Of a stretch of 37,124 nt of DNA, positions 15,453-37,124 are shown in pieces. This DNA is from Escherichia coli (GTDB lineage: Bacteria > Pseudomonadota > Gammaproteobacteria > Enterobacterales > Enterobacteriaceae): the NCBI RefSeq assembly GCF_003334385.1, contig NZ_QOWN01000044.1. One strand, given 5' to 3'. The position numbers were made by a program, and so were the translations under genes. Numbering within the stretch: position 1 is the first letter of the stretch; every line of letters begins with the position of its first letter. Under the pieces are notes generated by a model that saw only the letters and a program-made list of their open reading frames with translations, had not been told where the DNA came from and did no database searches.

Positions 15453-15615
15453 AGCTCCTCCTTAATGACAGGGTTGCGAAGCCCTGATTCTCTTCAGGGT
15501 GAATATTAAAGATAACACAAACATCGCGTAACGATTTGATAACAACCCAAATTGATAAAAGAGGAGAAACCTTGTGGCAAAGCAAATGACAACCCCGCCG
15601 CAGCGGGGTCAAGGA

Positions 15616-15696
15616 TCAGTGAGTAATGATCCAGAGGAGTTCGGCCCAGAAGAGCATCGACAGAGAAAACGCGCCCATCCAGGACCAATATTTCAT
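15616..15696 (-). CDS. Candidate small hydrophobic protein upstream of acnA (26 aa, MKYWSWMGAFSLSMLFWAELLWIITH)
   Basis: ATG-initiated 26-codon ORF on the acnA strand in the acnA leader region. Predicted single transmembrane helix. Below the 60-aa track cutoff; may be a real small protein or a chance ORF. Confidence 0.3.
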   Translation of the reverse strand: MKYWSWMGAFSLSMLFWAELLWIITH

Positions 15697-15824
15697 ATTT
15701 GTGTTGATCATAGGCTACACCCTTAACGGTTATTATTTTGTGTTGAGATAACTCAAGCTGTTATTGCTGCGGTGTATTAAAAGCCCTTTAATTCATTAAA
15801 AATGGGTAATAAGAATGATGATAA

Positions 15825-15994: not shown

Positions 15995-16135
15995 TTATCC
16001 CCACACTTTCCAAATCAGCAGTGCGACAACCACCCAGAAAAGTGCAGAACCAAGAAAAACCGCCAGCCAGGCTTTACGTTTTAATTCAGGATCGCGGCGG
16101 GGTTCCTGATTTCCAGAAGGCATTGCTAACCTCAT
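15995..16135 (-). CDS. ymiA: Small membrane protein YmiA (46 aa)
   Basis: ATG-initiated 46-aa ORF (MRLAMPSGNQEPRRDPELKRKAWLAVFLGSALFWVVVALLIWKVWG) with one predicted transmembrane helix. Its stop lies 2 nt upstream of the yciX ATG, suggesting translational coupling. Confidence 0.55.
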   Translation of the reverse strand: MRLAMPSGNQEPRRDPELKRKAWLAVFLGSALFWVVVALLIWKVWG

Positions 16136-16408
16136 ATAATCGCCATCACTTATCAGCAAGACGTTGAACGATTGGTGTAATTAATCATACGATGAGACAA
16201 ATCCTAAAGAAACTTTAGTCAAAAATCCAGCGAATTTACGAATCGTCTCCAGTGAATAATTCAATCTTTTGACCTGAAATAGATATTTGAAAACTGGAGT
16301 TTGCGAGGCGGGTAATTAGACACTACTTTACAGGTAATTTACCCTATAAATATGAGGGATAAAAATATTGTGCACGGTATAGAAATAAGTAACAAAAGAG
16401 AATATATT

Positions 16409-16436
16409 CCGGCACCTTCGCTACATAAAAGGTGCC
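16409..16436 (-). terminator. Putative terminator hairpin downstream of cysB
   Basis: CGGCACCTT-loop-AAGGTGCCG inverted repeat, 18 nt past the cysB stop. The T-run on the minus strand is modest. Confidence 0.4.
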
Positions 16437-16453
16437 GAAAATAACGCAAGAAA

Positions 16454-17452
<999 letters not shown>

Positions 17453-28200: not shown

Positions 28201-28245
28201 ATGAAAGCAATTTTCGTACTGAAAGGTTGGTGGCGCACTTCCTGA
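28201..28245 (+). CDS. trpL: trp operon leader peptide
   Basis: 14-codon [17 protein letters not shown] with tandem Trp codons at 28228-28233; classical attenuation leader. Confidence 0.95.
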
Positions 28246-28287
28246 AACGGGCAGTGTATTCACCATGCGTAAAGCAATCAGATACCC

Positions 28288-28315
28288 AGCCCGCCTAATG
28301 AGCGGGCTTTTTTTT
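28288..28315 (+). terminator. trp attenuator (3:4 terminator hairpin plus U-tract)
   Basis: AGCCCGCC-taat-GAGCGGGCT followed by TTTTTTTT, upstream of trpE. Confidence 0.93.
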
Positions 28316-31494: not shown

Positions 31495-32856
31495 ATGATG
31501 CAAACCGTTTTAGCGAAAATCGTCGCAGACAAGGCGATTTGGGTAGAAGCCCGCAAACAGCAGCAACCGCTGGCCAGTTTTCAGAATGAGGTTCAGCCGA
31601 GCACGCGACATTTTTATGATGCGCTACAGGGTGCGCGCACGGCGTTTATTCTGGAGTGCAAGAAAGCGTCGCCGTCAAAAGGCGTGATCCGTGATGATTT
31701 CGATCCAGCACGCATTGCCGCCATTTATAAACATTACGCTTCGGCAATTTCGGTGCTGACTGATGAGAAATATTTTCAGGGGAGCTTTAATTTCCTCCCC
31801 ATCGTCAGCCAAATCGCCCCGCAGCCGATTTTATGTAAAGACTTCATTATCGACCCTTACCAGATCTATCTGGCGCGCTATTACCAGGCCGATGCCTGCT
31901 TATTAATGCTTTCAGTACTGGATGACGACCAATATCGCCAGCTTGCCGCCGTCGCTCACAGTCTGGAGATGGGGGTGCTGACCGAAGTCAGTAATGAAGA
32001 GGAACAGGAGCGCGCCATTGCATTGGGAGCAAAGGTCGTTGGCATCAACAACCGCGATCTGCGTGATTTGTCGATTGATCTCAACCGTACCCGCGAGCTT
32101 GCGCCGAAACTGGGGCACAACGTGACGGTAATCAGCGAATCCGGCATCAATACTTACGCTCAGGTGCGCGAGTTAAGCCACTTCGCTAACGGTTTTCTGA
32201 TTGGTTCGGCGTTGATGGCCCATGACGATTTGCACGCCGCCGTGCGCCGGGTGTTGCTGGGTGAGAATAAAGTATGTGGCCTGACGCGTGGGCAAGATGC
32301 TAAAGCAGCTTATGACGCGGGCGCGATTTACGGTGGGTTGATTTTTGTTGCGACATCACCGCGTTGCGTCAACGTTGAACAGGCGCAGGAAGTGATGGCT
32401 GCGGCACCGTTGCAGTATGTTGGCGTGTTCCGCAATCACGATATTGCCGATGTGGTGGACAAAGCTAAGGTGTTATCGCTGGCGGCAGTGCAACTGCATG
32501 GTAATGAAGAACAGCTGTATATCGATACGCTGCGTGAAGCTCTGCCAGCACATGTTGCCATCTGGAAAGCATTAAGCGTCGGTGAAACCCTGCCCGCCCG
32601 CGAGTTTCAGCACGTTGATAAATATGTTTTAGACAACGGCCAGGGTGGAAGCGGGCAACGTTTTGACTGGTCACTATTAAATGGTCAATCGCTTGGCAAC
32701 GTTCTGCTGGCGGGGGGCTTAGGCGCAGATAACTGCGTGGAAGCGGCACAAACCGGCTGCGCCGGACTTGATTTTAATTCTGCTGTAGAGTCGCAACCGG
32801 GCATCAAAGACGCACGTCTTTTGGCCTCGGTTTTCCAGACGCTGCGCGCATATTAA
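31495..32856 (+). CDS. trpC: Bifunctional indole-3-glycerol-phosphate synthase / phosphoribosylanthranilate isomerase
   Basis: 453 aa from the first of two tandem ATGs directly after the trpD stop (TAAATGATG); two TIM-barrel domains. Confidence 0.96.
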
Positions 32857-32867
32857 GGAAAGGAACA

Positions 32868-34061
32868 ATGACAACATTACTTAACCCCTATTTTGGTGAG
32901 TTTGGCGGCATGTACGTGCCACAAATCCTGATGCCTGCTCTGCGCCAGCTGGAAGAAGCTTTTGTCAGTGCGCAAAAAGATCCTGAATTTCAGGCTCAGT
33001 TCAACGACCTGCTGAAAAACTATGCCGGGCGTCCAACCGCGCTGACCAAATGCCAGAACATTACAGCCGGGACGAACACCACGCTGTATCTCAAGCGTGA
33101 AGATTTGCTGCACGGCGGCGCGCATAAAACTAACCAGGTGCTGGGGCAGGCGTTGCTGGCGAAGCGGATGGGTAAAACCGAAATCATCGCCGAAACCGGT
33201 GCCGGTCAGCATGGCGTGGCGTCGGCCCTTGCCAGCGCCCTGCTCGGCCTGAAATGCCGTATTTATATGGGTGCCAAAGACGTTGAACGCCAGTCGCCTA
33301 ACGTTTTTCGTATGCGCTTAATGGGTGCGGAAGTGATCCCGGTGCATAGCGGTTCCGCGACGCTGAAAGATGCCTGTAACGAGGCGCTGCGCGACTGGTC
33401 CGGTAGTTACGAAACCGCGCACTATATGCTGGGCACCGCAGCTGGCCCGCATCCTTATCCGACCATTGTGCGTGAGTTTCAGCGGATGATTGGCGAAGAA
33501 ACCAAAGCGCAGATTCTGGAAAGAGAAGGTCGCCTGCCGGATGCCGTTATCGCCTGTGTTGGCGGCGGTTCGAATGCCATCGGCATGTTTGCTGATTTCA
33601 TCAATGAAACCAACGTCGGCCTGATTGGTGTGGAGCCAGGTGGTCACGGTATCGAAACTGGCGAGCACGGCGCACCGCTAAAACATGGTCGCGTGGGTAT
33701 CTATTTCGGTATGAAAGCGCCGATGATGCAAACCGAAGACGGGCAGATTGAAGAATCTTACTCCATCTCCGCCGGACTGGATTTCCCGTCTGTCGGCCCA
33801 CAACACGCGTATCTTAACAGCACTGGACGCGCTGATTACGTGTCTATTACCGATGATGAAGCCCTTGAAGCCTTCAAAACGCTGTGCCTGCACGAAGGGA
33901 TCATCCCGGCGCTGGAATCCTCCCACGCCCTGGCCCATGCGTTGAAAATGATGCGCGAAAACCCGGATAAAGAGCAGCTACTGGTGGTTAACCTTTCCGG
34001 TCGCGGCGATAAAGACATCTTCACCGTTCACGATATTTTGAAAGCACGAGGGGAAATCTGA
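32868..34061 (+). CDS. trpB: Tryptophan synthase beta chain
   Basis: 397 aa; PLP-binding Lys in [18 protein letters not shown] upstream of the ATG. Confidence 0.97.
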
Positions 34062-34867
34062 TGGAACGCTACGAATCTCTGTTTGCCCAGTTGAAGGAGC
34101 GCAAAGAAGGCGCATTCGTTCCTTTCGTCACGCTCGGTGATCCGGGCATTGAGCAGTCATTGAAAATTATCGATACGCTAATTGAAGCCGGTGCTGACGC
34201 GCTGGAGTTAGGTATCCCCTTCTCCGACCCACTGGCGGATGGCCCGACGATTCAAAACGCCACTCTGCGCGCCTTTGCGGCAGGTGTGACTCCGGCACAA
34301 TGTTTTGAAATGCTGGCACTGATTCGCCAGAAACACCCGACCATTCCCATTGGCCTGTTGATGTATGCCAATCTGGTGTTTAACAAAGGCATTGATGAGT
34401 TTTATGCCCAGTGCGAAAAAGTCGGCGTCGATTCGGTGCTGGTTGCCGATGTGCCAGTTGAAGAGTCCGCGCCCTTCCGCCAGGCCGCGTTGCGTCATAA
34501 TGTCGCACCTATCTTCATCTGCCCGCCAAATGCCGATGACGACCTGCTGCGCCAGATAGCCTCTTACGGTCGTGGTTACACCTATTTGCTGTCACGAGCA
34601 GGCGTGACCGGCGCAGAAAACCGCGCCGCGTTACCCCTCAATCATCTGGTTGCGAAGCTGAAAGAGTACAACGCTGCACCTCCATTGCAGGGATTTGGTA
34701 TTTCCGCCCCGGATCAGGTAAAAGCAGCGATTGATGCAGGAGCTGCGGGCGCGATTTCTGGTTCGGCCATTGTTAAAATCATCGAGCAACATATTAATGA
34801 GCCAGAGAAAATGCTGGCGGCACTGAAAGTTTTTGTACAACCGATGAAAGCGGCGACGCGCAGTTAA
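34061..34867 (+). CDS. trpA: Tryptophan synthase alpha chain
   Basis: 268 aa; start overlaps the trpB stop (TGATG); TIM-barrel alpha subunit. Confidence 0.97.
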
Positions 34868-34872
34868 TCCCA

Positions 34873-34900
34873 CAGCCGCCAGTTCCGCTGGCGGCATTTT
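34873..34900 (+). terminator. trp operon terminator (trp t)
   Basis: AGCCGCCAG-ttccg-CTGGCGGC followed by ATTTT, 6 nt after the trpA stop. Confidence 0.85.
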
Positions 34901-35247
34901 AACTTTCTTTAATGAAGCCGGAAAAATCCTAAATTCATTTAATATTTATCTTTTTACCGTTTCGCTTACCCCGGTCGAACGTCAACTTACGTCATTTTTC
35001 CGCCCAACAGTAATATAATCAAACAAATTAATCCCGCAACATAACACCAGTAAAATCAATAATTTTCTCTAAGTCACTTATTCCTCAGGTAATTGTTAAT
35101 ATATCCAGAATGTTCCTCAAAATATATTTTCCCTCTATCTTCTCGTTGCGCTTAATTTGACTAATTCTCATTAGCGACTAATTTTAATGAGTGTCGACAC
35201 ACAACACTCATATTAATGAAACAATGCAACGCAACGGGAGAAATAAC

Positions 35248-35427
35248 ATGGCCGAACATCGTGGTGGTTCAGGAAATTTCGCCGAAGACCGTGAGAAGGC
35301 ATCCGACGCAGGCCGTAAAGGCGGTCAGCATAGCGGCGGTAATTTTAAAAATGATCCGCAACGCGCATCTGAAGCGGGTAAAAAAGGCGGTCAACAAAGC
35401 GGTGGTAATAAATCAGGCAAATCCTGA
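35248..35427 (+). CDS. yciG: KGG-repeat general stress protein YciG
   Basis: 59 aa from the ATG at 35248 (MAEHRGGSGNFAEDREKASDAGRKGGQHSGGNF...), Gly/Lys-rich with an internal repeat. The track ORF 35191..35427 starts 19 codons upstream. Confidence 0.85.
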   Translation: MAEHRGGSGNFAEDREKASDAGRKGGQHSGGNFKNDPQRASEAGKKGGQQSGGNKSGKS

Positions 35428-35512
35428 TTCACCGTTAATTATTAATATCAGCTGATAAAGATAATTGCATCTGCGGGCCGTATGGCTCGCAGTGATTTCA
35501 CTGGAGAAAAAT

Positions 35513-36013
35513 ATGAATATGAAGACCATTGAAGATGTATTTATTCACCTGCTTTCAGATACCTACAGCGCAGAAAAACAATTAACCCGGGCACTGGCAA
35601 AACTCGCAAGAGCAACATCAAATGAAAAATTAAGTCAGGCTTTTCATGCGCACCTCGAGGAAACTCATGGACAGATTGAACGTATTGATCAAGTTGTGGA
35701 GTCCGAATCGAACCTGAAAATTAAGCGCATGAAATGTGTGGCAATGGAAGGTCTTATTGAAGAAGCTAATGAGGTCATCGAAAGTACCGAGAAAAACGAA
35801 GTGCGTGATGCCGCACTGATTGCCGCAGCACAGAAAGTCGAGCATTATGAGATTGCCAGTTACGGGACATTAGCGACGCTGGCTGAACAATTAGGTTACC
35901 GTAAAGCAGCGAAGCTTCTGAAAGAAACCCTGGAAGAAGAAAAGGCCACCGACATCAAACTGACTGATCTGGCCATTAATAACGTAAATAAGAAAGCCGA
36001 AAATAAAGCCTGA
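35513..36013 (+). CDS. yciF: Ferritin-like DUF892 protein YciF
   Basis: 166 aa from the ATG at 35513 (MNMKTIEDVFIHLLSDTYSAEKQ...), preceded by GGAGAA. The track ORF starts 16 codons upstream. Confidence 0.9.
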   Translation: MNMKTIEDVFIHLLSDTYSAEKQLTRALAKLARATSNEKLSQAFHAHLEETHGQIERIDQVVESESNLKIKRMKCVAMEGLIEEANEVIESTEKNEVRDAALIAAAQKVEHYEIASYGTLATLAEQLGYRKAAKLLKETLEEEKATDIKLTDLAINNVNKKAENKA

Positions 36014-36058
36014 AATATGAATTTTAACTTTTAGTCATTTTATAAAGAGGACATTTTC

Positions 36059-36565
36059 ATGAATCGTATTGAACATTATCATGACTGGTTACGTGACGCC
36101 CACGCAATGGAAAAGCAAGCCGAATCTATGCTTGAATCCATGGCCAGCCGTATAGATAATTATCCTGAACTACGCGCTCGTATTGAACAACATCTTAGTG
36201 AAACCAAAAACCAGATTGTTCAACTGGAAACTATTCTTGATCGTAATGACATTTCACGTTCAGTCATTAAAGATTCCATGAGTAAAATGGCTGCGCTTGG
36301 GCAGTCAATCGGTGGTATATTCCCTTCTGATGAAATAGTCAAAGGCTCTATTAGCGGATATGTCTTCGAGCAATTTGAAATCGCCTGTTACACCTCACTA
36401 TTAGCAGCAGCAAAAAATGCCGGTGATACAGCTTCAATTCCAACCATCGAAGCGATTTTAAATGAGGAAAAGCAAATGGCCGACTGGCTGATTCAGAATA
36501 TTCCGCAAACAACTGAGAAATTTTTAATTCGCTCTGAAACTGATGGCGTAGAAGCGAAGAAATAA
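36059..36565 (+). CDS. yciE: Ferritin-like DUF892 protein YciE
   Basis: 168 aa; paralogous in fold to YciF. AAGAGGA upstream of the ATG. Confidence 0.9.
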   Translation: MNRIEHYHDWLRDAHAMEKQAESMLESMASRIDNYPELRARIEQHLSETKNQIVQLETILDRNDISRSVIKDSMSKMAALGQSIGGIFPSDEIVKGSISGYVFEQFEIACYTSLLAAAKNAGDTASIPTIEAILNEEKQMADWLIQNIPQTTEKFLIRSETDGVEAKK

Positions 36566-36589
36566 TACCCTTTATACCATGTCCTTATT

Positions 36590-36618
36590 GACCCCGTATA
36601 TTACGGGGTCGTTTTTGT
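36590..36618. terminator. Bidirectional terminator between yciE and the ompW remnant
   Basis: GACCCCGTA-tat-TACGGGGTC followed by GTTTTTGTG, between the two convergent stop codons. Confidence 0.7.
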
Positions 36619-36624
36619 GCGGAA

Positions 36625-36741
36625 TTAAAAACGATATCCTGCTGAGAACATAAACACCCACGGATCGAGGCGTACGCTATCGTGTTGCTGTGCACCGCCC
36701 AGCTTATAATTGGCGGTGGTATCGATATCCATGTACCACAC
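36625..36741 (-). pseudogene. ompW: 3'-terminal fragment of outer membrane protein W gene (last ~38 codons only)
   Basis: Minus-strand frame encodes ...VWYMDIDTTANYKLGGAQQHDSVRLDPWVFMFSAGYRF-stop, matching the OmpW C-terminus as I remember it. Upstream of codon V the frame diverges (HIFYNLP instead of DWLVNMS), hits a TAA within 12 codons, and the DNA becomes AT-rich and non-coding. Confidence 0.6.
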
Positions 36742-36838
36742 TGGTAGATTATAAAAAATGTGATAAACAGCTATTTATAAAAGGAAAAACAAACTTTTAT
36801 GGTGATTTTTCATACCGTTTTTCTGTGTTTTTAACTGA

Positions 36839-37066
36839 TTGATTTTGTTAAAGTCTTTTTTTGTTTTGCAGAGGCTTATCCCCCCTTATAGTCATTCCAT
36901 AACTAACGGATATGACCATGTGGACGTGATTGTCAGAACCACCAGCAATGATGGACTCACCATTTTAAGAGTTGTAAATAAAGAATCCGCGCACGAATTT
37001 GTACAGGAAACGCTGCAGGAAGCCTGGGAAACCGCTGAACTGCTTTATCCAATAACGCGATCATAA
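36839..37066 (+). CDS. Hypothetical ORF in the non-ompW DNA beyond the truncation point
   Basis: 75-codon open frame with no in-frame ATG; candidate starts are TTG 36839 or GTG 36920, neither with a good Shine-Dalgarno. Product (...VDVIVRTTSNDGLTILRVVNKESAHEFVQETLQEAWETAELLYPITRS) is not one I recognise. May be non-coding. Confidence 0.2.
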   Translation: MILLKSFFVLQRLIPPYSHSITNGYDHVDVIVRTTSNDGLTILRVVNKESAHEFVQETLQEAWETAELLYPITRS

Positions 37067-37124
37067 TCACGGCAATAACATATTTTTTATGACATTATCC
37101 GTCATGTATGACATAACAACTATC

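Follow-up and report, generated by a model that had tools for sequence, protein, structure and literature searches.

The window analysed here, a stretch of 37,124 nucleotides from Escherichia coli, covers the chromosomal segment that runs from fabI to trpEDCBA-yciGFE. Positions 32369–36743 are base-for-base identical (100%) to K-12 MG1655. The interval under study, 34901–35427, is most of the trpA–yciG intergenic region plus yciG, and no difference from K-12 was found within it. DNA, protein and gene order are the same as those of K-12 YciG (b1259) and the RpoS-, H-NS- and McbR/YncC-regulated yciGFE operon; the window departs from K-12 downstream, where its ompW is broken at 36744 by P-EibA-like prophage DNA. 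The gene order is trpA-yciG-yciF-yciE, with ompW convergent, and the initial annotation had placed both yciG and its upstream region of about 340 bp (34901–35247) correctly. The genes and structures of the operon are the following.

trpA, + strand: stop codon ends at 34867; yciG has the same orientation, 380 bp downstream
35248–35427, + strand: yciG coding sequence, 59 aa, ATG at 35248, stop codon ending at 35427
35471–35492, + strand: G+C-rich hairpin in the yciG–yciF intergenic region, CTGCGGGCC-GTAT-GGCTCGCAG
35513–36013, + strand: yciF, second gene of the operon, 166 aa, YciE/YciF ferritin-like family (RefSeq annotation of the identical K-12 DNA)
36059–36565, + strand: yciE, third gene of the operon, 168-aa ferritin-like protein (open reading frame list and RefSeq annotation)
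36589–36611, + strand: intrinsic terminator at the end of yciGFE, common with the convergent ompW (terminator scan; 10-bp stem, then TTTTTGTG)

An NCBIfam search returned no family for YciG, YciF or YciE. For the comparisons below, 80 loci encoding YciF relatives were fetched, of which 21 are enterobacterial loci with yciG directly upstream. Across the whole window, Rfam models at their gathering thresholds found only two RNAs: a strong match (198 bits) to the enterobacterial sRNA STnc180 at 15582–15784 (− strand), adjoining acnA, and the expected Trp operon leader at 28222–28315 (+ strand), upstream of trpE.

The repeated unit of YciG

YciG had been described as a KGG-type stress protein with two copies of a roughly 16-residue unit. 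The two strings are present, starting at residues 18 and 40 and sharing 12 of 16 residues, but the true period is 22 aa (NFAEDREKASDAGRKGGQHSGG / NFKNDPQRASEAGKKGGQQSGG), with 14 of the 22 positions identical. The two units were delimited by Pfam, by the self-match of the protein and by the repeat in the DNA.

Residues 10–31, nt 35275–35340, + strand: KGG repeat 1
Residues 32–53, nt 35341–35406, + strand: KGG repeat 2

The Pfam KGG model (PF10685) matches YciG twice, at residues 10–30 (E = 4.9e-9) and 32–52 (E = 3.5e-8), with both matches spanning model positions 1–22. RefSeq names the protein "con-10 family general stress protein", and the assignment to the KGG type was thus borne out.

The apparent repeat could be a chance outcome of a low-complexity, Gly/Lys/Ser-rich composition, with no real duplicated unit behind it. 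YciG does have a biased composition, its 59 residues including 14 Gly, 7 Lys and 7 Ser, and Tandem Repeats Finder reported no DNA-level array for yciG. However, YciG matches itself at an offset of 22 with 16 identities, a number reached at one offset by only 2 of 20,000 composition-preserving shuffles, and the two independent Pfam matches each have E < 1e-7. The DNA is repeated as well: the 45 nt at 35299–35343 and at 35365–35409 are 78% identical, at a spacing of exactly 66 nt. Conservation of the repeat, on which the initial annotation had let its reading depend, extended across genera, both units being kept in 21/21 enterobacterial yciG orthologues adjoining yciF. Given the shuffle test and the Pfam matches, the chance explanation is effectively refuted. 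YciG belongs to the KGG/con-10 "general stress protein" family and is built of two 22-residue repeats with partial repeat tails.

Approximately 2000 database proteins match YciG, and every one among the matches listed carries PF10685. The composition of the protein is hydrophilin-like, that is, high in glycine (23.7%) and strongly hydrophilic (GRAVY −1.67); a PDB sequence search found no solved homologue. Intrinsic disorder of YciG has been reported, and published work describes YciG, YmdF and STM14_1829 as KGG-repeat, intrinsically disordered hydrophilins; the roles ascribed to YciG are those of a disordered hydrophilin aiding tolerance of acid, heat and bile, and motility. A 2026 preprint reports a two-hybrid interaction of YciG with the c-di-GMP phosphodiesterase YhjH in S. 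Paratyphi A. The KGG paralogues YmdF and STM14_1829/SEN1538 resemble YciG in being small, disordered, glycine-rich and RpoS-induced, with tandem KGG units; unlike yciG, they are stand-alone genes elsewhere on the chromosome. More distant from YciG are the con-10-family stress proteins, linked through RefSeq naming, and the LEA-like hydrophilins, likened to it in a comment in one paper. The tail of YciG in E. coli (...QQSGGNKSGKS; residues 51–59, 35398–35424) is unlike the tail ...QNSHGGGRKSDNS and its variants, which are common to all the other genera examined.

The trp termination zone upstream of yciG

Two terminators of the trp operon lie between trpA and yciG, and the second of them contains a core of unusual composition.

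34875–34895, + strand: trp t, intrinsic terminator of the trp operon (terminator scan)
34974–35238, + strand: trp t', Rho-dependent terminator of the trp operon, bounded as a laboratory cassette by published primers
34982–35094, + strand: core of trp t', poor in G and rich in C, where Rho probably loads (rut; from composition)

The first terminator begins 7 nt past the trpA stop at 34867 and has a 9-bp stem with 7 G–C pairs, a 3-nt loop and then ATTTTAACTT. Tandem terminators after trpA are said to have been described by Wu, Christie and Platt in 1981, and on the strength of these we take the hairpin at 34875–34895 to be trp t. A permissive Rfam scan of 34600–37124 also placed sroD over this hairpin, at 21.9 bits (E = 0.3), below the gathering score of 50; we rejected this match as chance.

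The second terminator was located by identity with experimentally defined DNA. A 2024 paper (PMC11647493, Table S1) gives a primer pair named "trp t'"; each primer has a single match in the window, the forward one at 34974–34990 (+ strand) and the reverse one at 35218–35238 (− strand). In the literature trp t' is an intergenic, untranslated, Rho-dependent terminator with an experimental Rut peak; its Rho dependence is taken from there. The window carries the same DNA as this model terminator of the E. coli trp operon, and the sequence corresponds to its description as C-rich, G-poor and untranslated. On both strands of the 37 kb, 78-nt windows with five or fewer G residues were found only at 34982–35094. 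The centroid RNA fold leaves most of this core unpaired, and the open reading frame list contains no sense-strand frame of at least 30 aa in it and no + strand intergenic frame ending before yciG. The predicted transcript is thus untranslated, C-rich, G-poor and weakly structured, and we consider 34982–35094 the likely rut site, with an extent that we infer from composition.

The upstream region as a whole (34901–35247; 347 bp, A117 C78 G38 T114) has a GC content of 0.334, compared with 0.545 for trpEDCBA, 0.41–0.43 for yciF/yciE and 0.50 for the whole window, and only 0.04% of the 347-bp windows of the 37 kb have a GC content as low. Its description as very AT-rich is therefore accurate. The A/T tracts that had been pointed out are also present, eight of them with four or more bases, but they are no more frequent than the composition predicts (5.5 ± 2.1 in shuffled sequences, of which 17% reach 8). 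The initial annotation was silent on a second bias, a 2:1 excess of C over G (78:38) on the + strand, where the C/G ratio peaks at 4.5 at 35008–35085. Besides the yciG upstream region and the prophage end, the only stretch of the window with GC ≤0.36 over 347 bp is at 16103–16548, just upstream of a 324-aa open reading frame at 16454–17428 (− strand).

Low GC upstream of yciG is kept in 21 orthologous loci (0.31–0.43, versus 0.48–0.565 for the locus). Because most of these loci do not adjoin trpA, AT-richness is an attribute of the yciG module. Only E. coli has the excess of C over G, the C:G ratio in the other 21 loci being 0.8–1.5, and this excess is tied to trp t': the upstream composition is G-poor and C-rich because the region is the trp operon termination zone, made up of trp t and the Rho-dependent trp t'.

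The AT-rich composition might then be due solely to the trp Rho-dependent terminator and its need for unstructured, G-poor RNA, and be unrelated to H-NS or to a yciG promoter. The extent of the trp t' cassette, the G depletion at trp t' that is unique in the window and the restriction of the 2:1 skew to E. coli all speak for such an origin. Against it, a GC content of 0.31–0.43 is retained in 19 loci that lack trpA upstream of yciG, and H-NS repression of yciG is documented in the literature, which leaves this explanation with little probability. Most likely, the terminator function and the H-NS/promoter function both share this DNA.

The yciG promoter and its regulation

The promoter and leader of yciG occupy the end of the intergenic region.

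35157–35191, + strand: sigma-S-type promoter of yciG (phylogenetic footprint and Salmonella homology)
35191–35247, + strand: putative 5' UTR of yciG, 57 nt (read from sequence)

The promoter consists of a −35 element TTGACT (35157–35162), a 16-bp spacer, a C at −13 (35178) and a −10 element TAATTT (35179–35184), followed by TAA. In an alignment of 14 genera, the upstream DNA contained just two invariant blocks, TTTGA(C) and CTA..TT. An arrangement of TTGAC(T/G), a 16-bp spacer with C as its last base, TA(A/G)nnT and then T/A-rich bases recurred in 18/21 loci, all 18 of which have the C before the −10 element, and the blocks were kept although the upstream neighbours differ between loci. The sequence C-TAATTT-TAA (35178–35187) thus combines the −13 C, the T/A-rich downstream bases and the conservation looked for in a sigma-S −10 region. 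The Salmonella yciG promoter from global start-site maps (−39 to +1, TCAATTTGACTAATCGGTTTAACCAACTAATTTTAATAGG) aligns base for base with the promoter in the window, and by this homology transcription in E. coli would start at about G35191. A generic sigma-70 consensus scan detected no promoter in the trpA–yciG intergenic region, as expected because the −10 element TAATTT is weak, and so lends the footprinted promoter no independent support.

These results showed that the reading of the AT-rich region as a promoter was incomplete rather than wrong. Only the last ~90 bp upstream of yciG are promoter and 5' UTR; the remainder is the trp termination zone. The conserved sigma-S promoter of ~35 bp sits within the 3' part of the trp t' cassette, together with most of the UTR. 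Whereas trp t' is usually handled as an isolated terminator, in the window its 3' third coincides with the yciG promoter and 5' UTR. A literature search did not link yciG to Rho-dependent termination, the terms co-occurring only in unrelated passages of a single paper, and the overlap of trp t' with the yciG promoter seems not to have been discussed previously in the searchable literature.

The 5' UTR carries the palindrome GTGTCGACAC at 35191–35200 and a GGGAG ribosome-binding site at 35236–35240, 7 nt before the ATG. Because the N-terminus MAEHRGGSGNF is conserved across genera, the ATG at 35248 was taken as the start codon. A GTG start at 35191, giving a 78-aa open reading frame, was rejected, since the conserved N-terminus starts at MAEHRGG; the position of the ribosome-binding site and the probable transcription start at 35191 itself also rule it out. 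Possible hairpin arms are found in the UTR at 35189–35194 (GAGTGT) and 35204–35209 (ACACTC), but shuffled versions of the E. coli sequence fold just as well (z = 0.07), and a 5' UTR hairpin is not claimed for the window. Other genera have a stronger hairpin, with compensatory changes in 6/7 predicted pairs and z down to −4. In most of them it lies ~15–45 nt downstream of the −10 element (GGATACG...CGTATC, CGACAC...GTGTCG), varying in sequence with the pairing kept, and in its place E. coli and Salmonella have the palindrome in common. A direct repeat, GACTAATTCTCATTAG / GACTAATTTTAATGAG at 35159–35174 and 35176–35191 (81% identical, 17-nt spacing), overlies both hexamers of the promoter, −35 and −10, and could be fortuitous or serve a regulator as a binding site.

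The initial annotation had read yciGFE as an osmotic/RpoS stress operon bound by H-NS, and published data support this reading, which is not new. In E. coli EDL933, yciGFE was RpoS-dependent 205-, 405- and 38-fold, with RpoS and H-NS given as regulators; this 38- to 405-fold dependence agrees with an RpoS stress operon. In Salmonella, RNA-seq gave a log2 fold change of −8.6 for yciG in an rpoS mutant, and RpoS dependence was found by qRT-PCR in S. Enteritidis. The link to H-NS is upheld by derepression in two backgrounds: yciG was up at least 20-fold in a Salmonella hns deletion, and yciE and yciF were up 8-fold and 15-fold, respectively, in E. coli with an engineered H-NS variant. McbR/YncC binds and activates the yciG promoter and may counteract H-NS there. 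In a 2026 preprint, yciGFE is listed as repressed by H-NS and is a candidate for membership in a regulatory programme induced by salt. Secondary citations and data from related strains suggest that H-NS, McbR and Rho act on this exact DNA.

The high-affinity motif of H-NS, TCGATAAATT, was not enriched, with 36 matches (≤2 mismatches) in the window versus 40 expected, and the trpA–yciG intergenic region contained no exact match and two weak sites with two mismatches each (35056, 35098). A high-affinity nucleation motif is not obligatory for H-NS binding. The region has the general character of an H-NS locus, being an accessory segment with DNA more AT-rich than its host (GC 0.334 versus 0.50 for the window).

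Since yciG is oriented like trpA and lies only 380 bp downstream of it, its expression might come mainly from read-through of the trp operon, with its own promoter of minor importance. Two terminators separate the genes, however, and the conserved sigma-S-type promoter accompanies yciG in genera without trpA upstream. In addition, Salmonella RNA-seq gave normalised counts for wild type and rpoS mutant of 12 and 8 for trpA and of 7567 and 20 for yciG. Expression of yciG by read-through is thus extremely improbable, and transcription from the sigma-S-type promoter remains the preferred reading.

Further downstream, the yciG–yciF hairpin was found in 18/18 orthologous intergenic regions examined, and RNAalifold gave it 10 pairs, 4 with compensatory changes; in E. 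coli no clear T-run follows it. Normalised RNA-seq counts in Salmonella were 41,351 for yciG (183 nt) and 4,372 for yciF (504 nt), that is, ~25-fold more reads per nt for yciG. Because the hairpin is conserved and yciG reads exceed yciF reads to this extent in Salmonella, a short yciG transcript is suggested, and the hairpin may yield it by terminating transcription in part or by stabilising the 3' end of the mRNA.

Distribution of the segment and interpretation of the locus

The full trpA-yciGFE-ompW stretch was present in 4716/5426 complete E. coli genomes, and ~700 matched trpA alone; in ~13% of the complete genomes, trp t, trp t' and yciGFE are all missing. In an ST131 genome (L084 5565–5800, compared with window positions 34868–36791), homology ends at the trpA stop, a different hairpin comes next and an ompW allele of 69% identity follows 50 bp later. 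This suggests that the presence or absence of yciGFE is an old segmental polymorphism and no simple deletion. Among the 21 orthologous loci, trpA is upstream of yciG only in the two from Salmonella, as it is in E. coli; other neighbours are found in Klebsiella, Enterobacter, Citrobacter, Lelliottia, Leclercia, Kosakonia, Phytobacter and others. The trp t'-yciGFE segment is a dispensable, mobile, low-GC module.

The Salmonella locus, yciGFE-katN, is the closest counterpart. As in E. coli, it follows trpA, has the same −35 element, spacer, −13 C and −10 element, encodes two KGG units, and is RpoS-dependent and H-NS-silenced. It differs in the presence of katN, which the E. coli locus lacks (paper title; annotation), in the C-terminal tail of YciG, in the DNA upstream of the −35 element, which aligns poorly, and in the absence of a strong C-over-G skew (62:51 and 67:50, versus 78:38 in E. 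coli).

Our interpretation of the locus is as follows. As the first gene of yciGFE, yciG would be transcribed with the operon from the compact sigma-S-type promoter, starting near G35191. H-NS on the surrounding AT-rich DNA would silence this promoter, and McbR/YncC and RpoS would switch it on in stationary phase or under osmotic or acid stress. The ~290 bp upstream of the promoter are not part of it but the end zone of trp transcription: the trp t hairpin comes first, and the trp t' cassette then extends over the yciG promoter and the greater part of its 5' UTR. The two terminators may insulate the promoter from trp read-through. We have high confidence in this explanation as a whole, that is, a KGG protein expressed from a sigma-S/H-NS/McbR promoter with the trp t and trp t' zone upstream.

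The yciG gene, its repeat family and its regulation by RpoS, H-NS and McbR are already known and published. What is added here is the anatomy of the intergenic region: the two terminators trp t and trp t', the G-poor core of the latter, and the embedded sigma-S promoter. Most of what had been called a promoter region is the model terminator trp t', whose 3' end overlaps the conserved promoter. Conversely, the 34974–35238 cassette used as a "pure" Rho terminator also holds a stationary-phase promoter facing the reporter gene, which could lift the background of trp t' reporters in stationary phase or in hns strains. For genome annotation there is little consequence.

A tighter connection between the two functions can be imagined, in which H-NS filaments slow RNA polymerase coming from trpA and so aid Rho at t', while the terminators shield the weak yciG promoter against occlusion from the strongly transcribed trp operon. 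We regard this coupling as unlikely. If it were true, the relief of H-NS silencing by McbR and RpoS in stationary phase would also alter trp read-through into yciGFE, and genomes without the segment (~13%; ST131 being the one examined) would end trp transcription at a single hairpin common with ompW. The locus offers a simple natural system for asking whether H-NS and Rho act together at the end of a core operon, and lineages without the trp t'-yciGFE segment could act as natural controls.

Several strains carry rearrangements in or next to the segment. IS1 is inserted in the AT-rich trpA–yciG intergenic region of at least two strains, and yciGFE has been removed by an IS1-flanked deletion in a third (insertion and deletion loci: H1, NZ_CP154406.1; L003, 3710–4407; L002, 4076–4773). 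In one strain yciG alone is absent. In the window, the interrupted ompW is left as a remnant at 36625–36743 (− strand), and identity with K-12 stops at 36744. The DNA beyond, 36744–37124, has a GC content of 0.35 and matches phage P-EibA of E. coli ECOR-9 at 99.2% identity. The junction of ompW with P-EibA-like DNA is common to only 60/5426 genomes; in one strain, JNEC-KY203, the inserted DNA continues to an S6-family autotransporter peptidase and a YadA-like (Eib-type) protein.
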